Shown here: positions 1 to 25,185 of the stretch, one piece after another
How positions within the stretch are numbered: position 1 is the stretch's first letter
Layout of the letters: the number at the start of each line of letters is the position of its first letter
Translations under genes and position numbers: made by a program
NCBI GenBank assembly: GCA_964639185.1
Contig: CAZXCN010000003.1
Span: forward strand, 14,059 to 78,058
Reading direction: 5' to 3'
DNA length: 64,000 nucleotides
Origin: an uncultured Candidatus Saccharibacteria bacterium
Lineage (GTDB): Bacteria > Patescibacteriota > Minisyncoccia > Phycocordibacterales > UBA9973
The notes under the pieces: model-generated
Seen by the model: only the letters and a program-made list of their open reading frames with translations
Database searches by the model: none
What the model was told of the DNA's origin: nothing

Positions 1-908
1 TCACTGTTGTGATATTCAACATTCATATTAATATCCTCTACTCCATGTACTGTCAGAGTACTAGTACCTATACCGTCTATTTTTACACCAAGTTTCTCCA
101 GAAAGAAACATATTTCCTGTACCATATAATTTGCACTAGCGAAATTGATTACAGTTTTACCTGGTATCTTACTAGCTGTTGTTAAGACATTTTCACATGC
201 AGTGTCACCAGCCTCATACATTACTAGGCTTGTTGCTTTTGGGTTTTTAGAAGTAATAATATAATTTTCATTTGTAGTTTTGATTTTTATTCCTAAATCT
301 TCCAGTGCATATATATGTGCTGCTATTGTGCGCTTACCGAGCTTGCATCCAGATGCATGTGGTAAAGAAAATGTAGGTAGTAAATGTACTAATGGGCCAA
401 TAAGCATGATTATTGATCGAGTACGGATAGCAGACTCTACATTTATATTGTCTAGATTAAATTTCTTCGGAGGTGTTATCTCGACAGTATTTTGTGCGGT
501 CCATACAACTTTAACTCCAATACTTTCTAATATTTCTATGACCCGATATACCTCTTCGATACGAGCAATGCCATGCAATGTTGTTTTACCTCGGTTCAAT
601 AATGATGCACACAATAGACCTACTGATCCATTCTTTGAATAGTTGGTTTTTATGCTACCTTGTAATTTTCTACCACCCTCTATCTGAAAGTCTATAGAAT
701 TATTTATTGAAACTATCTGATGGCCTAATACATCACCTATTTTACTAAGTATATCGGTGCTAAAATTCTGTTCACCCTTTTCCATACGAGCAACAGCGCT
801 TTGTGAAGTACCTAATGCTTTGGCAAAAGCGCCTTGTGTCAGACCTTTGTGTTCGCGTAATTCTTTTATAAAATAAGCTATTTTTTGCTGATCGGATTGT
901 TTTTTCAT
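1..908 (-). CDS. murA: UDP-N-acetylglucosamine 1-carboxyvinyltransferase (MurA), partial (C-terminus off the window edge), with an N-terminal XRE-type helix-turn-helix fusion
   Basis: Manual reverse-complement translation from the ATG at 908..906 gives MKKQSDQQKIAYFIKELREHKGLTQGAFAKALGTSQSAVARMEKGEQNF (XRE HTH). This runs in frame into KLQGSIKTNYSKNGSVGLLCASLLNRGKTTLHG...SGCKLGKRT, which matches the MurA/EPT N-terminus and the catalytic Cys loop. The ORF runs off the window start. Confidence 0.75.
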   Translation of the reverse strand, partial: MKKQSDQQKIAYFIKELREHKGLTQGAFAKALGTSQSAVARMEKGEQNFSTDILSKIGDVLGHQIVSINNSIDFQIEGGRKLQGSIKTNYSKNGSVGLLCASLLNRGKTTLHGIARIEEVYRVIEILESIGVKVVWTAQNTVEITPPKKFNLDNINVESAIRTRSIIMLIGPLVHLLPTFSLPHASGCKLGKRTIAAHIYALEDLGIKIKTTNENYIITSKNPKATSLVMYEAGDTACENVLTTASKIPGKTVINFASANYMVQEICFFLEKLGVKIDGIGTSTLTVHGVEDINMNVEYHNS

Positions 909-920
909 AATTGGCATTAT

Positions 921-936
921 ATATCATATATGATAT
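921..936. promoter_or_regulatory. Perfect 16-bp palindrome ATATCATATATGATAT in the murA-murB divergent region; a candidate operator for the fused HTH that overlaps a TGnTATAAT-like -10 for murB
   Basis: The sequence atatcatatatgatat is its own reverse complement. It lies 12 bp from the HTH-murA start and 10 bp from the murB start. Confidence 0.35.
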
Positions 937-945
937 AATTGCAAT

Positions 946-2025
946 ATGGACAAGTTTATAGACATATCACTGTATACAACATTCAAGCTCGCTTCATATG
1001 CGGGGGAACTTGTGGTTTTTAAAGGTGGTGATGTAAAAAATATTATAGGTTCTATAAATAAAGATAATAATAAAATTTTTGTGCTAGGTGGTGGGTCCAA
1101 TATTATATTGCCGAATGATATGACAAATTTTAGTATTTTAAAAATAGAAAATAAAGGCATTGAAAAATTAAATGACCCCGAAGGAAAGAATACTTCCAAC
1201 GGGGCAGGAGATGATGTTTTTATTAGAGTTGCTGCAGGAGAGGTGTGGGATGATGTGGTGCAGTATGCTGTTGATAATAATTATTCAGGTATTGAAGCTT
1301 TGTCGGCGATCCCTGGAACAGCAGGCGCTACACCTGTACAAAATGTAGGTGCTTATGGGCAGGAAATCAAAGATGTATTGGTATCTATCGATGCATATGA
1401 CACACAAGCTGGCGAGATGGTTAGTATTACAAATACCGAATGCGAATTTAGTTATCGTATGAGTCGGTTTAAAAAGGACTGGAAGGGTAGATACATAATT
1501 ACACATATAATACTAAAGCTTTCAAAGAATCAACCAAAATTACCAGACTACCCAGGTGTAAAAAAATATTTTGAAAACAAAATACTCAGCCAGCCGTCCG
1601 ACGGCTATCTGGGTCCTAGCTTGCAGGAAATTCGTGATGCTATTATTGAAATACGCTGGTCAAAATTACCAAAACCTGAAGAAATTCCTAATTGTGGATC
1701 ATTCTTTGAGAATCCGATAGTAGATAAAAGTATTGCGGATAAAATAAAACAAGATTATCCGAACATGCCAACATTTCACGTCTCCGCTAGGAAAGACCTA
1801 GCGGAAGAGTTAGTAAAGATACCTGCTGGCTGGCTGATAGAAAATTCCGGACTCAAAGGCGCAGATTTTGGTACTGTAGGTACTTATGAAAAGAATGCTC
1901 TGGTATTGATAAACCTAGGCTCTGCAACTCAGGATGATGTAATCAGTGCTCGTGATCAGATAATCAGTGCTGTTTATGAAAAGTTTGGAATAACTCTTGA
2001 ATCGGAACCGGAGATAGTTAAATAA
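946..2025 (+). CDS. murB: UDP-N-acetylenolpyruvoylglucosamine reductase (MurB)
   Basis: VLGGGSNIIL and AIPGTAGATPVQNVGAYGQE are MurB FAD-binding motifs. SYRMSRFK is also typical. The gene is divergent from murA. Confidence 0.85.
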   Translation: MDKFIDISLYTTFKLASYAGELVVFKGGDVKNIIGSINKDNNKIFVLGGGSNIILPNDMTNFSILKIENKGIEKLNDPEGKNTSNGAGDDVFIRVAAGEVWDDVVQYAVDNNYSGIEALSAIPGTAGATPVQNVGAYGQEIKDVLVSIDAYDTQAGEMVSITNTECEFSYRMSRFKKDWKGRYIITHIILKLSKNQPKLPDYPGVKKYFENKILSQPSDGYLGPSLQEIRDAIIEIRWSKLPKPEEIPNCGSFFENPIVDKSIADKIKQDYPNMPTFHVSARKDLAEELVKIPAGWLIENSGLKGADFGTVGTYEKNALVLINLGSATQDDVISARDQIISAVYEKFGITLESEPEIVK

Positions 2026-2049: not shown

Positions 2050-2101
2050 CCGGCACAATAATAAAATCCCCTATTTATAGGGGATTTTATTATTGTGCCG
2101 G
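2050..2101. terminator. Long perfect palindrome acting as a bidirectional terminator between murB and tRNA-Leu
   Basis: ccggcacaataataaaatcccctat-ttat-aggggattttattattgtgccgg. The right arm overlaps the tRNA-Leu 3' end. Confidence 0.6.
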
Positions 2102-2177
2102 AGAAGGGACTTGAACCCTTAACCCTTGCGAGACACGATTTTGAGTCGTGCGCGTATACCAATTCCGCCACTCCGGC
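2096..2177 (-). tRNA. tRNA-Leu (anticodon CAA), long variable arm
   Basis: The reverse complement reads GCCGGAGUGGCGGAAUUGGUAUACGCGCACGACUCAAAAUCGUG...AAGGGUUCAAGUCCCUUCUCCGGCA. Acceptor GCCGGAG pairs with CUCCGGC, the anticodon loop is CUCAAAA and the T-loop is UUCAAGU. No CCA is encoded. Confidence 0.85.
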
Positions 2178-2253: not shown

Positions 2254-3264
2254 ATGTCACAATTATACAGTAACTCAATATTTTGGATTGATGTAGATAA
2301 GATCAAGCCAAACCCATATCAGCCACGCCGTGAATTCGATGAAGCTCGATTAAAAGATTTATCCAGTTCTATTCGCCAATATGGTATCCTTCAACCTCTA
2401 ACAGTATCACGTAATGAAGTTATAAAAGATGATGGGGGAATTGCTGTTGAATATGAATTAATAGCCGGTGAGCGCCGACTACGTGCTTCAAAGTTGGCTG
2501 GATTGCGTGAAGTACCTGTAGTAATACGTGTCGGGGATGATAGTATGGCTAAATTGGAACTTGCTATTATAGAGAATTTACAACGCGAAGATTTGAATGC
2601 TGTTGAGCGCGCTCGTGCATTTATGAAACTTGCTGAAGAATTCAAATTTACTCATGCACAAATAGGTTTAAAAGTAGGCAAGAGTCGTGAATATGTTTCT
2701 AATACTTTGCGCTTGCTAGCTTTACCTCAAGAAGTTCTGGATGCCCTATCACAAGGCAAAATTACAGAAGGTCATACTCGTCCAATACTTATGCTTTCTG
2801 ATAGACCTGAAGAGCAGATGGTTCTATTTAAAGAGATAATGTTTAAAAAGATCAATGTTCGTGATGCTGAAAAAATGGCACGTCGTGTTGCAACTGATCG
2901 AGTTCGCAAGAAGGAATACATGCCAGATCCAGAAATGTCTGCTATAGAGGAACGTCTTCAAGAGACTCTGGGTACTCGTGTACATATCGAACGTGGAGAA
3001 GTTGGCGGTCAGATCACTATTGATTTCTTTTCTAACGAAGACCTAGAAACTATATTAGAAATAATAAAGACAAATAATGTTGCTGAAAAACATGCAATGT
3101 TAAAGAAGTATGAAGCTAGTCAAATGACTGCAAATACAGAAAAACCAATAGAGTCAAAGGAAGATATTTTCGACAATGCACCTATCGATGACCGTACTAA
3201 AGATGAAATCCAAAAATCTGAAGAAGAAGCTGACCTATATAATATAAGTAAATTCTCTTTATAA
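2254..3264 (+). CDS. parB: ParB/Spo0J-like chromosome partitioning protein
   Basis: ParB N-terminal box (LIAGERRLRASKLAGL), HTH region (GLKVGKSREYVSNTLRLL) and an acidic C-terminus. No parA is adjacent. Confidence 0.8.
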   Translation: MSQLYSNSIFWIDVDKIKPNPYQPRREFDEARLKDLSSSIRQYGILQPLTVSRNEVIKDDGGIAVEYELIAGERRLRASKLAGLREVPVVIRVGDDSMAKLELAIIENLQREDLNAVERARAFMKLAEEFKFTHAQIGLKVGKSREYVSNTLRLLALPQEVLDALSQGKITEGHTRPILMLSDRPEEQMVLFKEIMFKKINVRDAEKMARRVATDRVRKKEYMPDPEMSAIEERLQETLGTRVHIERGEVGGQITIDFFSNEDLETILEIIKTNNVAEKHAMLKKYEASQMTANTEKPIESKEDIFDNAPIDDRTKDEIQKSEEEADLYNISKFSL

Positions 3265-3267
3265 AAT

Positions 3268-4758
3268 TTAGAATCCAGTATAAGAACGCAAGCGTGATAG
3301 TAGACTATTTTCTTTTAGGTAAGCATTAATATACTTTTTAGCCATACTTGTTTTTACATTATCGATCCACTTGCTGGATGGATTAGACTTTTTATTTACT
3401 ACTATTTCCACGATGTCATTATTGTGAAGTTTAGTGAATAGTGTGGTCATCTTGCTATTTATCTTTGCGCTTTGGGCATGATTACCAATATCTGAGTGTA
3501 TTGCATAAGCAAAGTCGATAACTGTTGAGTCTTCTGGTAGATCTACGACATCACCTTTTGGTGTTAGGACGAATATTCTATCTTTAAAAAGATCCATCTT
3601 TAGATGCTCTAAGAACTTTTCAGGATTTATCTTCTTTTCCTCCAATCCCTTCAATTCTTCTAGCCATTCAAGATTCTTTGAGCTAGGAGTGTTGTCATCA
3701 GTAGAAGCTTTTTTATTTCTTCTATTACTTTCTTCTTTATATATAAAATGTGCTGCAACACCATAGGCAGCTTCAGCATGCATTTCTGTGGTGCGTATTT
3801 GGATCTCGACTATACCACCATTACCTGTAAAGATTGTAGTGTGTAGACTTCGATAACCATTTGGCTTTGGCATGGCTATATAGTCTTTTATGCGCCCTGG
3901 CATTGGTCGCCACAGCATATGTATGAGCCCAAGTGTTCGATAACAATCCTCGATGTCTTTTACTATTACTCGTATGGCAACAATATCATATATTTTATCG
4001 ATATCCATTTCATAGCGCTTTAATTTCTGCCATAGACTATATTTATGTTTCTCTCGTTCATCTATCTCAATGAATTTTATATTATTCTTTTCCAATTCTT
4101 CTTTTAAGGTTTCTGATACTATCTCTAACTCTTCATTGTTTGAAGTAGACTTTTCTTTTAAAAGATCTTCAACTTTTGCATAATCTTCTGGAAATACATA
4201 AGGGAAAGCTGCGTCTTCAAGAGCACCTTTTAACTTACCCATACCGATACGATCAGCAAGGCGGGCATGTATTTGGATAGTTTCGAGTGCTATGCGATAA
4301 CGTTTGTCTTCGCGTACGTGTTGGAGTGTTCGGACATTGTGTAGTCTGTCTGCAAGCTTGATAATCAATACTCGCAAATCTTCGGCCACAGCCATGAAGA
4401 ATTTACGTAGACTTTCAACATGACGTTCTGCTCCACGGTATTTTAATTTACCCAGTTTAGTAACACCTTTTACTAGACGAACTATTTCTTCACCAAACTT
4501 TTTTTGCATCTCTTCTTCGGGGATTTCTGTATCTTCGAGTGTATCGTGTAGTAGGCCTGCTACTATAGTACTAGCATCCATACCTAAGCCCGCCAATATT
4601 TTGGCAGTTTCAAATACATGTATAAAGTAAGGTTCACCACTATTACGCAGTTGACCTTCGTGGGCACTCATAGCAAAATCGTAAGCTTTCTGTATCAAGA
4701 CTTTGTCAGCCTTGTTTAGCTTGTGAGCTTGTTCAAATATTTCATTGATATCTGGCAT
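3268..4758 (-). CDS. rel: RelA/SpoT-homolog (p)ppGpp synthetase/hydrolase, short form (HD + synthetase + TGS, no ACT/ZFD C-terminus)
   Basis: HD motif HVFETAKILAGLGMDASTIVAGLLHDTLEDT. Synthetase motif GRIKDYIAMPKPNGYRSLHTTI. TGS-like VLTPKGDVVDLPEDSTVIDFAYAIHSDIG at the C-terminus. Only 496 aa. Confidence 0.85.
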   Translation of the reverse strand: MPDINEIFEQAHKLNKADKVLIQKAYDFAMSAHEGQLRNSGEPYFIHVFETAKILAGLGMDASTIVAGLLHDTLEDTEIPEEEMQKKFGEEIVRLVKGVTKLGKLKYRGAERHVESLRKFFMAVAEDLRVLIIKLADRLHNVRTLQHVREDKRYRIALETIQIHARLADRIGMGKLKGALEDAAFPYVFPEDYAKVEDLLKEKSTSNNEELEIVSETLKEELEKNNIKFIEIDEREKHKYSLWQKLKRYEMDIDKIYDIVAIRVIVKDIEDCYRTLGLIHMLWRPMPGRIKDYIAMPKPNGYRSLHTTIFTGNGGIVEIQIRTTEMHAEAAYGVAAHFIYKEESNRRNKKASTDDNTPSSKNLEWLEELKGLEEKKINPEKFLEHLKMDLFKDRIFVLTPKGDVVDLPEDSTVIDFAYAIHSDIGNHAQSAKINSKMTTLFTKLHNNDIVEIVVNKKSNPSSKWIDNVKTSMAKKYINAYLKENSLLSRLRSYTGF

Positions 4759-23215: not shown

Positions 23216-23491
23216 ATGAGCATTACTTTGAAGCGTATAATTATAGGCATCTTTATATTTTTATGTATATTTTGGGCTCCTTGGTGGGTCACTATTTTTA
23301 TTGCATCAGCTGGGATATTTTTATTCAATAATTATATTGAATTTATATTTACAGGATTGATTATGTATTCTGTTTACGGGGCAGGTAGCATGGGCATACT
23401 TGGGTCTACATTATATTTGCCAGTTGTATTAGTGGGTATATATCTAACACTTTCATTTATCAAGAAGTATATAATAATTTACAATAAATAA
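23216..23491 (+). CDS. Small hypothetical membrane protein (91 aa, 3 TM)
   Basis: Hydrophobic ORF between the secreted protein and PBP2. Confidence 0.35.
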   Translation: MSITLKRIIIGIFIFLCIFWAPWWVTIFIASAGIFLFNNYIEFIFTGLIMYSVYGAGSMGILGSTLYLPVVLVGIYLTLSFIKKYIIIYNK

Positions 23492-25185
23492 TGTTTAAAA
23501 AAAGACGAAAAAGGAAATACTATGATGTGCACCCAGATGAAATATTTCTGGATTCTAAAAATTTACCAGAATTCAATACACAACAATTCGAAGGTCGTTT
23601 AGAAAAAGCAATTCCAAAAAGATCTTTATTCTACCTCGGGGGATTCTTTTTTCTTATTGGGTTGATATTCATATATCAATTAGGCACATTGCAAGTATTA
23701 AAAGGTACATATTATTTTAAGAAAAGTGAGAACAATACTCTCTCGCAAGAACCTATATTTTCTGACCGTGGCTTGATACTCGACAGGAATCAGGTCAAAT
23801 TGGCATGGAATGTGTGGACAGAAGACAATACCGATAGATTCGACATACCTGTACGTGCGTATATATCTGAAGGCGGGTTTGGGCATTTGTTGGGTTATGT
23901 GTCTTATCCACAAAAGGATTCATCGGGTAATTATTGGCAAAGTTCATTTATAGGTAAAGACGGCACGGAAAAAGTTTATGATGAAAAATTAAAAGGTGAA
24001 AATGGTGTACGTATTACTGAGGTAGATGTGAAGAATACAATACAATCTGAAAATATTATTACGCCACCAAAACATGGTGACAATATTATATTATCTATAG
24101 ACAAAGGAATACAAAGCCAAATGTATAAATCTATTGTAGATATGTCAAAAAATGTTGGATTCTCTGGAGGGGCTGGTGCTGTTATGGACCTGGCTACAGG
24201 TGAATTGTTGGCTATTACTAGCTACCCGGAATATAACCCAAACATACTTTCCAAAGGTAGCGACACTGCTGTAATCAAAGGGTATCTAACTGATAAAAGG
24301 AAAGTATTTCTAAATCGTGCTATTGGTGGATTGTATGCACCTGGTTCTATTGTAAAACCTTTTGTTGGATATGCAGCGCTTGTCGAAGGTGTTATAACAC
24401 CTTCGAAAAATATTCTTTCAAATGGAAAATTGGAAATACAAAATCCATATTTCAAAGATCAGAAAACTGTTTTCAATGACCATGGAGTTTTCGGTTATGT
24501 AAATATGAGCAAAGCAATAGCTGTATCTTCTGACGTTTACTTTTACCAGATAGGTGGTGGGTATATGGATCAAAAAGGCCTTGGTATTGTGAATATAGAT
24601 AAATATATAAAAATTTTCGGTATTACTAATAAAACAGGTATTGATTTGTTGGGCGAAAAGGAGGGTAATATTCCTACGCCTGAATGGAAAGCTAAAACTT
24701 TCAAAGGTGATGCTTGGCGGGTTGGTGACACATACAACACAGCTATTGGTCAATATGGTTTACAAGTAACGCTGATGCAAATGGTGCGAGCTGTTTCTGC
24801 TATCGCCACAATGGGTACTATGCCTACACCACATATTCGATTCCGTGATGATGCTATGGAGTCAAAAGTTGAAAAGATAGATGTAGATAAAGATATGATG
24901 AAAGTTATTCAATCCGGAATGCGTGAAGCTGTATTGACTGGCACAGCAACATCGCTCAATATTCCAGGTGTTGCTGTCGCTGCAAAATCCGGTACTGCCC
25001 AAATCGGAGTAGGCAATACAAATACAAATTCGTGGATTATTGGATACTTCCCATATGAAAATCCAAAATACGCTTTTGCTGTTCTGATGGAGCGTGGTCC
25101 AAAAGAAGCTTCGGGTAATGCTACGCGTGTAATGAGTGAAGTTGTCGATTATATGAAAATTTCTACTCCACAATATTTACAATAG
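23491..25185 (+). CDS. Class B penicillin-binding protein (PBP2/transpeptidase)
   Basis: N-terminal TM. SxxK motif GSIVKPF, SxN-like SSDVYF and KSGTAQ (KTG variant). Confidence 0.8.
   Translation: MFKKRRKRKYYDVHPDEIFLDSKNLPEFNTQQFEGRLEKAIPKRSLFYLGGFFFLIGLIFIYQLGTLQVLKGTYYFKKSENNTLSQEPIFSDRGLILDRNQVKLAWNVWTEDNTDRFDIPVRAYISEGGFGHLLGYVSYPQKDSSGNYWQSSFIGKDGTEKVYDEKLKGENGVRITEVDVKNTIQSENIITPPKHGDNIILSIDKGIQSQMYKSIVDMSKNVGFSGGAGAVMDLATGELLAITSYPEYNPNILSKGSDTAVIKGYLTDKRKVFLNRAIGGLYAPGSIVKPFVGYAALVEGVITPSKNILSNGKLEIQNPYFKDQKTVFNDHGVFGYVNMSKAIAVSSDVYFYQIGGGYMDQKGLGIVNIDKYIKIFGITNKTGIDLLGEKEGNIPTPEWKAKTFKGDAWRVGDTYNTAIGQYGLQVTLMQMVRAVSAIATMGTMPTPHIRFRDDAMESKVEKIDVDKDMMKVIQSGMREAVLTGTATSLNIPGVAVAAKSGTAQIGVGNTNTNSWIIGYFPYENPKYAFAVLMERGPKEASGNATRVMSEVVDYMKISTPQYLQ

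Follow-up and report, generated by a model that had tools for sequence, protein, structure and literature searches.

Several metabolic enzymes control genes of their own pathway through a DNA-binding domain. The best-known case is BirA, the group II biotin protein ligase and bio repressor, in which an N-terminal HTH represses genes of the enzyme's own pathway from a palindromic operator placed over two divergent, partly overlapping promoters (bioA and bioBFCD). BirA dimerises on the reaction intermediate biotinyl-AMP and, in E. coli, does not regulate its own gene. Biotin protein ligases without the DNA-binding domain also exist, and they form group I as opposed to group II (PMC4016012). The 'trigger enzymes' PutA, NadR and RbkR likewise join a DNA-binding domain to a metabolic enzyme and control genes of the same pathway. 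RbkR, like the protein described here, came to light when fused proteins and conserved operators were compared across genomes (PMC5397151). The DNA-binding folds of this group (ribbon-helix-helix in PutA, winged HTH in RbkR) and its enzymes differ from those of the present protein, and none of the three acts on peptidoglycan synthesis.

MurA catalyses the first committed step of peptidoglycan synthesis and is the target of fosfomycin. To our knowledge, its established controls are post-translational, namely ClpCP/ReoM-dependent proteolysis in Firmicutes and feedback inhibition by UDP-MurNAc. Here we analysed a MurA with an N-terminal HTH (HTH-MurA), which is encoded at one end of a 64-kb stretch of DNA (the window). 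The locus shares with BirA the N-terminal HTH on an enzyme, the palindrome at divergent promoters and the existence of orthologues that lack the domain. It differs in that BirA has a winged HTH, another enzyme fold and another pathway, and the main predicted target of HTH-MurA is its own promoter. Full-text literature searches returned no report of an HTH-MurA fusion or of its operator.

The MurA reading frame (1-908, minus strand) is truncated by the window edge. Translation from 908 to 3 gave 302 codons without a stop; the complete protein has 503 aa and is represented in public data by an identical full-length entry (P0001). The first-pass annotation had described an HTH fused in frame to MurA, and a single open frame was indeed found to encode an XRE-type HTH (aa 1-62), a 10-aa linker and the MurA domain, with both domains scoring above their Pfam cut-offs (Table 1). 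The HTH peptide quoted in that annotation, QGAFAKALGTSQSAVARMEKG, corresponds to aa 25-45 of the fused frame, and the junction, which had been placed at about 700..720, lies at nt 693-722. Pfam HTH_3 (PF01381) matched aa 14-62 with 49.4 bits (cut-off 23) and HTH_31 scored 39.7 bits (cut-off 27). EPSP_synthase (PF00275) matched aa 77-296 of the partial protein with 59.5 bits, and the NCBIfam MurA models matched from aa 74. In the AF2 model, the HTH consists of predicted helices at 6-20, 25-32, 36-43 and 51-61 (pLDDT 86-93), and pLDDT falls to 67 in the linker region (aa 61-70).

Table 1. Features of the murA-murB region, with positions counted from the first nucleotide of the window
Feature	Position	Strand	Evidence
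MurA (UDP-GlcNAc enolpyruvyl transferase) domain, aa 73-302 of 503	3..692	-	Pfam EPSP_synthase, NCBIfam MurA models
Linker of ~10 residues, aa 63-72	693..722	-	No secondary structure in AF2 model; frame continuous
XRE/Cro-C1-type HTH, aa 1-62	723..908	-	Pfam HTH_3; start codon 906-908
Predicted recognition helix, aa 36-43 (QSAVARME)	780..803	-	AF2 helix
Predicted murB promoter: -35 TTGGCA 911-916, 17-nt spacer, TG 931-932, -10 TATAAT 934-939	911..939	+	Promoter scan 11/12, extended -10
Predicted murA promoter: -35 TTGCAA 944-939, 17-nt spacer, -10 TATAAT 921-916	916..944	-	Promoter scan 10/12
Predicted operator, perfect 18-bp palindrome TATATCATATATGATATA	920..937		Dyad-symmetric conservation over 75 sites
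murB (UDP-N-acetylenolpyruvoylglucosamine reductase, 359 aa)	946..2025	+	NF000755 319.6 bits (cut-off 277); Pfam FAD_binding_4 and MurB_C
tRNA-Leu(CAA), syntenic landmark upstream of murA	2095..2177	-	ARAGORN

The solved sequences closest to the HTH are the XRE DNA-binding proteins HipB, C.AhdI, HigA and PezA. Members of these families bind as dimers to palindromic operators in their own promoters and thereby autoregulate. They are small, and their dimers are held together by the C-terminal part of the protein itself or by a toxin partner, whereas the C-terminal partner in HTH-MurA is a 430-residue enzyme. A type II antitoxin of the HipB, PezA or HigA kind was rejected for the window: no toxin gene is present among the neighbours (murB, tRNA-Leu and parB). 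The NCBIfam antitoxin matches of the HTH were all below their cut-offs.

The fusion is not peculiar to this contig. Each of the 120 best homologues (length about 503 aa, identity 74-100%) combines HTH_3 with EPSP_synthase, and among the 80 best GTDB species loci the gene is fused in 71. The close relatives are 74-88% identical over the whole enzyme. No relative showed a stop between the domains or a separate HTH gene in front of murA; the nine loci that lack the HTH contain none at all. An assembly or frameshift error that joined a separate HTH gene to murA is thus extremely improbable, and we rejected it: the identical 503-aa protein sits on independent contigs, and hundreds of fused homologues were assembled independently from several data sources, isolate genomes of Nonomuraea included. 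The architecture had been called unusual for MurA, which is correct for MurA in general; within this Paceibacteria clade, the fusion is the standard form.

A scan of representative proteins extended the family to at least eight full-length fused proteins of 31-51% identity. It also returned shorter entries with matches beginning in the HTH, Nonomuraea species among them. These diverged fusions belong to other Patescibacteria and to cultured Nonomuraea (Actinomycetota). In public annotation the fused architecture is already visible, for example as a Nonomuraea 'helix-turn-helix domain-containing protein'. The HTH motif TSQSA..R.E.G.QN was preserved in 10 of 10 fused representatives, even at 30% overall identity.

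The HTH-less orthologues are 73-78% identical to the fused protein and share the tRNA-Leu synteny, with murA directly after tRNA-Leu. In a neighbour-joining tree of the MurA domain, the nine HTH-less sequences were scattered among the fused ones, on internal branches too short to be trusted. Since such branches give no count of losses, we do not claim multiple independent losses of the HTH.

We then compared the MurA body with canonical MurA (E. coli and E. cloacae; PDB 1UAE, 3SWD). The two share the fold and the catalytic Lys, Asn, Arg, Cys and Asp residues at 24-26% identity, and HTH-MurA has 72 additional N-terminal residues (HTH and linker). Alignment to solved MurA showed that eight of eight catalytic residues are kept (K22, N23, R91, C115, R120, D305, R371 and R397 in E. 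coli numbering; K92, N93, R164, C188, R193, D304, R457 and R483 in P0001). In the window, the codon of the catalytic Cys188 is at 345-347 (minus strand) and Lys92/Asn93 are encoded at about 630-635. The AF2 monomer model had a pLDDT of 93.1, and Foldseek aligned it to many solved MurA structures with a target-normalised TM of 0.92-0.94. P0001 exceeded the cut-off of the NF006873 subfamily model (308.8 bits; cut-off 297) and stayed below that of the TIGR01072 equivalog model (294.5 bits; cut-off 392.7). A canonical Patescibacteria MurA (L081) behaved in the same way, with 325.5 and 312.5 bits, respectively. E. coli D369 is replaced by Ala throughout the clade, the HTH-less members included. The retained residues argue that the fused protein is likely a catalytically competent MurA; this is not certain because of the exchange of D369 and the missed TIGR01072 cut-off.

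The intergenic region between murA and murB measures 37 bp, and the start codons are 38 bp apart. The perfect 16-bp palindrome of the first-pass annotation, ATATCATATATGATAT, is present at 921-936; its true length is 18 bp, as it can be extended to a perfect 18-mer at 920-937. Its distance to the murA start codon was measured as 12 bp, as had been noted, and the murB ATG is 9 bp away. By itself, in this AT-rich window, the palindrome is only weakly remarkable and barely above chance: two perfect palindromes of at least 18 bp were observed, where simulating the window with a first-order Markov model gave an expectation of 0.61. With as many as three mismatches allowed, the 16-mer occurred five times (1.7 expected). 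These weak matches are at chance level and reveal no further regulon sites in the 64 kb, where the 10-bp core of the palindrome is single-copy. The significance of the palindrome comes from the comparison with relatives and not from the window itself.

The predicted promoters of murA and murB overlap fully, and this divergent pair comprises the two strongest promoter matches between positions 700 and 1200. The palindrome lies in both -35/-10 spacers, and the murA spacer is essentially the operator. The left operator half, ATTATA, is TATAAT on the opposite strand; part of the operator sequence is also accounted for by two back-to-back TATAAT boxes. Only 7 nt (murA, ATG at 908) and 6 nt (murB, ATG at 946) separate the -10 boxes from the start codons, so both transcripts are probably leaderless. 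A Shine-Dalgarno-like 4-mer was found at none of the 62 long ORFs of the window.

A protein bound in the spacer could also activate transcription in the manner of MerR, whose relatives bind at this position too, or it could switch between the two promoters, which RNA polymerase cannot occupy simultaneously. We regard either mode as very unlikely here. MerR-type activation uses over-long spacers of 19-20 nt, whereas the spacers of this locus have 16-17 nt and are already optimal. With 10 and 11 of 12 consensus matches, neither hexamer pair should require an activator, and the HTH is of the XRE and not of the MerR type.

To follow the palindrome in relatives, we searched for its core in ±3 kb of each related contig (535 kb in total). 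Of the close fused loci, 69 extend far enough upstream to be scored; in 68 of these, and likewise in the window, the 10-bp core TCATATATGA (at most one mismatch, flanks kept) was found once, upstream of the gene. The remaining locus, L043, has two changes that preserve the symmetry (ATATATCACATGTGATATAT). The core was also upstream of all six diverged fusions that have upstream DNA; at L086 (P0140), whose contig is short on that side, no site was found. The palindrome that had been reported for the window is thus conserved in its relatives. The family consensus is TAT[A/C]TCATATATGA[T/G]ATA. A position matrix of 75 sites was dyad-symmetric, with at least 69 of the 75 agreeing at 16 of 18 positions, and the two degenerate positions mirror each other. 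Strict covariation between them (A/C at -1, T/G at +10) was not found in the 75 sites, among which mixed operators were common. The A-type left half predominates at loci with a divergent murB. The order of -35, operator and -10 seen in the window recurs in the 75-locus consensus.

The site was retained at 39% (L081) and 31% (L088) protein identity, and in the 70%-GC DNA of Nonomuraea it reads ATCTCATATGTGAGAT, at -26. Where genes have been inserted before murA, it has stayed with the promoter of the operon, 600 nt (L057, L059, L066) or 1300 nt (L043, L085) upstream. Throughout the 535 kb, one chance intragenic match was obtained: an additional core in L041, which lies within the coding sequence of alanine racemase and has no operator flanks. 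Nine of nine HTH-less loci had no operator core upstream; a core-like match at -1159 in one of them (L075) lacks the flanks and was dismissed as chance. This absence is weak evidence, because the operator adjoins the HTH coding sequence and one deletion from the tRNA end would take both. We have accordingly downgraded the common loss of operator and HTH as a proof of their coupling. Taken together, the comparison indicates that the putative operator is strictly associated with HTH-MurA over large evolutionary distances.

Could this conservation be explained without binding by the HTH? The palindrome might be bound by a different regulator or simply form the conserved core of a bidirectional promoter, and the HTH might serve another function such as protein docking. 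Indeed, each half of the palindrome overlaps a TATAAT-like hexamer, one per strand, and XRE-type HTHs can be protein-binding modules: the HTH of RodZ, which is also part of a cell-wall synthesis protein, binds MreB and not DNA. RodZ differs from HTH-MurA in being a membrane protein without an enzyme domain, and its HTH belongs to Pfam HTH_25. Against a mere promoter core, the palindrome is equally conserved at tRNA-Leu-murA loci that have no divergent gene (L020, L037-L039, L044, L064) and hence need no second -10 box. Promoter spacers are not normally conserved, whereas this one hardly varies, even at 30% protein identity or in DNA of 70% GC. Moreover, the palindrome is missing from the other promoters of the window. 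A RodZ-like HTH was rejected, as HTH_25 is not among the Pfam matches and a DNA site is conserved. Overall, we consider an HTH that does not target the palindrome to be unlikely.

We therefore favour a bifunctional trigger enzyme of the BirA kind as the likely explanation: a competent MurA whose HTH binds the palindrome in its own promoter and represses murA and murB. In this scheme, the XRE-type HTH would bind the 18-bp palindrome between -35 and -10, most likely as a dimer. Once enough protein has accumulated, RNA polymerase would be blocked at the murA promoter, resulting in negative autoregulation. As the divergent promoters overlap completely and the start codons are 38 bp apart, a single bound dimer would shut both genes and thus silence the first two committed steps of peptidoglycan precursor synthesis. 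DNA binding by the HTH, dimerisation, and repression rather than activation are all inferred from sequence comparison. MurA is generally monomeric, and the AF2 model is of a single chain; this tempers the predicted pairing of two HTHs. In about 35 of 80 related loci, the gene that diverges from the fused murA is murB, and co-regulation of murB is predicted for those loci only.

Several diverged fusions appear to have lost catalysis. P0128, P0129, P0147, P0138, P0140, P0199 and P0248 lack C115, R91 and R120, often together with K22, R371 or R397, and P0128 is below the MurA cut-offs. Three of them (P0128, P0147 and P0129) adjoin, behind the same operator, a canonical murA whose Cys loop is intact. 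At the pseudo-enzyme loci, the operator separates the regulator gene from a canonical operon of murA-murB or mur ligase-murA. From the canonical MurA of other Patescibacteria, the HTH-MurA clade is distinct, with an identity of only 26-28%.

Such relatives raise the possibility that the protein of the window, too, is mainly a transcription factor whose MurA-like body serves as sensor or scaffold, with the real MurA of the cell encoded elsewhere. No second murA was found within the window, and the survey of the organism's own genome spans just these 64 kb. However, the window protein has the full catalytic set and an NCBIfam score like that of canonical CPR MurA, and its close relatives are similar to it over the whole enzyme. 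The same locus is held by HTH-less orthologues, and the window has murB, yet no canonical murA where the pseudo-enzyme loci have murA-murB. We judge a purely regulatory role of this protein to be improbable and retain the bifunctional enzyme as the preferred reading.

In solved structures, UDP-MurNAc locks MurA in a closed, dormant complex. It is conceivable that DNA binding by the fused protein depends on the ligand state of its MurA body, with UDP-GlcNAc, PEP and UDP-MurNAc as candidate ligands; in contrast to the biotinyl-AMP of BirA, this link is speculative. As a broader and tentative proposal, to which we give somewhat less than even chances, HTH-MurA may represent an undescribed family of peptidoglycan-precursor regulators with the MurA fold as ligand sensor. 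In the form found in the window, the sole MurA would read its own substrate or product state (UDP-GlcNAc, PEP or UDP-MurNAc) and repress murA and murB in response. In other Patescibacteria, a dead 'pseudo-MurA' repressor would control a canonical murA-murB, mur-ligase or ddl cluster from an identical operator, and the cassette would also have moved into Actinomycetota (Nonomuraea).

The operator consensus provides a ready regulon probe for metagenomes, and the Nonomuraea homologues, which occur in cultured strains, make the hypothesis accessible to experiment. From active fusion and HTH-less enzyme to dead fusion beside a canonical murA, the series would illustrate how an enzyme becomes a regulator in nature. 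If the proposed mechanism is correct, HTH-MurA would exert direct transcriptional feedback on the supply of cell-wall precursors, an economical arrangement for Patescibacteria, whose genomes are very small and poor in regulators.

The window's MurA had been described in the first-pass annotation as fused in frame to an N-terminal XRE-type helix-turn-helix (HTH). ORF translation bore this out: a single, unbroken 302-codon frame runs on the minus strand from 908 to the window edge, both domains are recognized in it by Pfam (table), and the peptide quoted in the annotation corresponds to aa 25-45. P0001, a full-length match from public data (503 aa), is identical across the 302 residues. HTH_3 and EPSP_synthase were both present in all of the 120 best homologues (74-100% identity, ~503 aa), which came from NCBI, JGI, ENA and Logan assemblies and were labelled Paceibacteria, Nomurabacteria or Patescibacteria. 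A GTDB scan with one genome per species gave 540 confirmed relatives, and 71 of the best 80 loci examined were fused. The HTH is missing entirely in nine close relatives (enzyme part 73-78% identical), whose ORFs begin a few residues ahead of SIDFQ, the conserved opening of the MurA domain; tRNA-Leu(CAA) directly precedes murA in eight of them and also lies upstream in some fused loci and in the window. No relative examined has the HTH as a gene of its own, closed by a stop ahead of murA, which, together with the wide occurrence of fused homologues, argues against a sequencing error. We conclude that the fusion is genuine and widespread within its clade. Public annotation names these proteins MurA or 'helix-turn-helix domain-containing protein'.

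Features of the HTH-MurA locus in the window and at related loci (L, locus; P, protein; identities are to the window protein)
Locus	Feature	Position	Strand	Detail
Window	HTH-MurA start codon	906-908	minus	
Window	XRE-type HTH_3	aa 14-62 of frame	minus	Pfam 49.4 bits, cut-off 23
Window	EPSP_synthase/MurA domain	from aa 77	minus	Pfam
Window	MurA models	alignment from aa 74	minus	NCBIfam
Window	Predicted murA promoter	944-916	minus	TTGCAA, 17 nt, TATAAT; 10/12 matches
Window	Predicted murB promoter	911-939	plus	TTGGCA, 17 nt, TG-n-TATAAT; 11/12 matches
Window	murB, 359 aa	ATG at 946	plus	NF000755, 319.6 bits
Window	tRNA-Leu(CAA)	2095-2177	minus	upstream of fused gene
L084	P0122 (51%)	-26		ATCTCATATGTGAGAT
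L089	P0129 (41%)	abuts ATG		ATATCATATATGATAT
L081	P0128 (39%)	followed by ATG		TTGACAatatatcatatatgatatTAAATA
L085	P0138 (37%)	1.3 kb upstream		TTGCAatatatcatataggatatataat, promoter of NUDIX / nucleotidyl-transferase / HTH-MurA-like operon
L087	P0147 (36%)			symmetric variant TATAACATATATGCTATA
L086	P0140 (34%)			no site; contig upstream DNA too short to judge
L088	P0199 (31%)	-18		ATATCAGATATGATATAAT
L059	Intervening gene	2292-2867		AAA_33 P-loop kinase
L066	Intervening gene	710-1288		AAA_33 P-loop kinase
L057	Intervening gene	2427-2987		histidine phosphatase
L043, L085	Intervening genes			NUDIX hydrolase, sugar-phosphate nucleotidyl-transferase
L020, L035, L038, L039, L044, L046, L047, L052, L056, L062, L064, L070	Perfect DnaA box	44-90 nt ahead of murA	single orientation	TTATCCACA

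In the HTH-less locus L072, part of the tRNA-Leu 3' end is duplicated (2874-3000; …cgattctctccctgggcaca) just ahead of the murA start, perhaps a scar left when a rearrangement took out promoter and HTH. In the window, a parB-like gene (2254-3264, plus strand) adjoins the murB/tRNA-Leu/murA locus and a RelA/SpoT-like gene (3268-4758, minus strand) lies in the same neighbourhood, both identified from ORF translation only. The sign of the GC skew flips near the window start, suggesting that the locus may be near a replication origin.

The murA-murB intergenic gap is 37 bp. Its 16-mer at 921-936 is a perfect palindrome, as the annotation had stated, but 16 bp is too short: the symmetry extends to a perfect 18-mer, TATATCATATATGATATA (920-937). 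By itself this palindrome is not impressive in the 36%-GC window, in which two perfect palindromes of at least 18 bp were observed and 0.61 expected. The longest palindrome in the window, the perfect 24-bp TCGAAGGTGTTATAACACCTTCGA (24383-24406), lies within a long ORF (23491-25185). A scan of 700-1200 for sigma-70-like promoters gave, as its two strongest matches, predicted murA and murB promoters that form a completely overlapping divergent pair. The 18-bp palindrome occupies the spacers of the two promoters and extends into each -10 box, so that a protein bound there would keep RNA polymerase off both promoters. The -10 boxes end 6-7 nt ahead of the respective ATG, predicting leaderless murA and murB mRNAs. 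This fits the pattern across the window: none of the 62 window ORFs of at least 120 aa has a Shine-Dalgarno-like 4-mer at -16 to -4, and 28 of the 62 (raw count) have a TAnnWT hexamer ending 4-9 nt ahead of the ATG, several being a textbook TATAAT. The pattern points to leaderless translation as the norm in this organism.

Upstream regions were extracted from all loci; L033 and L040, with <35 nt upstream, were left out of the count. The palindrome proved to be conserved: its 10-bp core, TCATATATGA (at most one mismatch, conserved flanks), had a single occurrence ahead of the fused gene in 68 of 69 close fused loci, and likewise in the window; the 69th, L043, has the symmetric variant ATATATCACATGTGATATAT. 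The core was found upstream of murA in none of the nine HTH-less loci, and the 535 kb of locus DNA held one further exact match, within an alanine racemase gene and without the flanks. The matrix of 75 sites, tTGCaAtTATaTCATATATGAgATAtAaT, contains a recognizable -35 box, operator and -10 box. Conservation of the operator is mirror-symmetric (at least 69/75 at 16 of 18 positions), and its two degenerate positions (A/C and T/G) mirror one another. In divergent-murB loci the left half is predominantly A-type and then reads TATAAT on the opposite strand, so this half doubles as the murB -10 box. That the operator is merely two back-to-back -10 boxes is unlikely, since it is equally conserved without divergent transcription, for example in tRNA-Leu-murA loci. 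We regard the comparative evidence for the predicted operator as decisive. Because HTH and operator are adjacent, a single deletion may explain their joint absence; the number of loss events was not countable from the neighbour-joining tree.

Other elements occur near murA in relatives. A perfect DnaA box is found immediately ahead of the murA -35 box in loci that have tRNA-Leu, not murB, as upstream neighbour (table); this spot accounts for 12 of its 18 exact copies in the 535 kb, and one-mismatch versions occur in many other loci. It is absent at the window's murA, the window copies being at 23904 and 27557. The box could reflect DnaA control of murA or be another factor's site. In L009 (~2850-3000) and L030 (~2840-3000), inserts of ~100-140 nt with terminal inverted repeats (e.g. 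CCCGTTAGAGAT ... ATCTCTAACGGG) separate operator-promoter and murA ATG; they sit exactly at the former leaderless start and regenerate ATGA. Similar ~100-nt inserts are present in L005, L011, L048 and L049, and in L030 and L049 the promoter itself lies between the arms of another inverted repeat (AACGGGACAAGTA / TACTTGTCCCGT). The inserts look like MITE-type elements that give a formerly leaderless gene a leader.

HMMER, run exhaustively over 1.84 billion representatives, listed eight full-length fused representatives (31-51% identity) and shorter entries matching from the HTH onward; loci were fetched for seven of the eight (table). P0122 is from cultured Nonomuraea species and its site stands in 70%-GC DNA. 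In the alignment, the recognition-helix region TSQSA..R.E.G.QN was common to 10/10 fused representatives. The operon layout of L085 recurs in L043, whose protein is closely related to that of the window, and in L057, L059 and L066 another gene separates operator-promoter from HTH-murA. Sites ahead of intervening genes indicate that the operator tracks the fused gene's transcription unit, not just adjacent coding DNA. The products of the intervening genes plausibly act on nucleotide-sugar pools. The AAA_33 kinase is reminiscent of the zeta/PezT toxins, whose substrate is UDP-GlcNAc, which they phosphorylate, and the HTH has a weak match to PezA; there was no Zeta_toxin match. In L084 (Nonomuraea sp. 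NEAU-A123, JAHFZZ010000002.1; 4095-5486) a gene of the phage integrase family and a second, small HTH gene (HTH_31) come after HTH-murA, which hints that the cassette came on, or adjoins, a mobile element.

Alignment to solved MurA showed that K22, N23, R91, C115 (C188 here, nt 345-347), R120, D305, R371 and R397 (E. coli numbering) are all kept. D369 is replaced by Ala across the whole HTH-associated clade, HTH-less members and Nonomuraea included; in P0001 this Ala is residue 455-456, in a PPALRP motif beyond the window. Full-length P0001 scored 308.8 bits against the NCBIfam MurA subfamily cut-off of 297, and 294.5 against the equivalog cut-off of 392.7; a canonical Patescibacteria MurA likewise scores over the former and under the latter. 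In an AlphaFold2 model (mean pLDDT 93.1) the HTH helices span 6-20, 25-32, 36-43 and 51-61, the linker (aa 62-72) is of lower confidence, and the MurA body superposes on solved MurA structures with TM 0.92-0.94. Its sole disordered part is the Cys loop, which is disordered in real MurA too. From residues and model, the enzyme part looks active. No second murA was found within the 64-kb window, and another may lie elsewhere in the genome.

C115, R91 and R120 have disappeared from the diverged proteins P0128, P0129, P0147, P0138, P0140, P0199 and P0248, which vary in whether K22, R371 or R397 is missing as well; P0128 scores under the MurA cut-offs. The genes for P0128, P0147 and P0129 are divergent from a canonical murA that has an intact GGC loop and is in one operon with murB or with a Mur ligase; next after the fused genes themselves comes ddl or a gene for a Mur ligase. 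Their MurA-like bodies are 33-37% identical to the window MurA domain, versus 24-26% to the canonical MurA next door. The window has the order murB, operator, HTH-MurA, which is their layout without the canonical murA. In our reading these sequences form a single regulator family, and its fused proteins would be either working enzymes (window, Nonomuraea) or dead sensors or scaffolds.

We propose that an HTH-MurA dimer binds the palindrome, whose half-sites are centred roughly one helical turn from each other, like those of Cro/cI-type operators, although MurA is usually monomeric. The bound dimer would repress the predicted leaderless promoter of its own gene and, in the window, also the overlapping murB promoter, as the site position and the near-consensus promoters with optimal spacers suggest. 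In its simplest form this would hold the concentration of an essential enzyme steady in a regulator-poor genome. Ligand control through opening and closing of the MurA body is attractive and speculative; solved MurA structures are locked with UDP-MurNAc and PEP adduct (e.g. 3SWD).

The closest functional analogue is BirA, likewise an enzyme with an N-terminal HTH and a palindromic operator over divergent overlapping promoters. Natural BirA variants without the DNA-binding domain (PMC4016012) resemble the HTH-less MurA relatives. PutA, NadR and RbkR (PMC5397151) are of the same kind, and the HTHs of HipB, HigA, PezA and C.AhdI resemble that of HTH-MurA, which lacks a toxin partner. A literature search for HTH-MurA found no publication. 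The interest of the system lies in the strong comparative signal for the operator, the series from enzyme to pseudo-enzyme and the availability of culturable hosts in which tests can be made, and in the MurA step, which HTH-MurA would govern.
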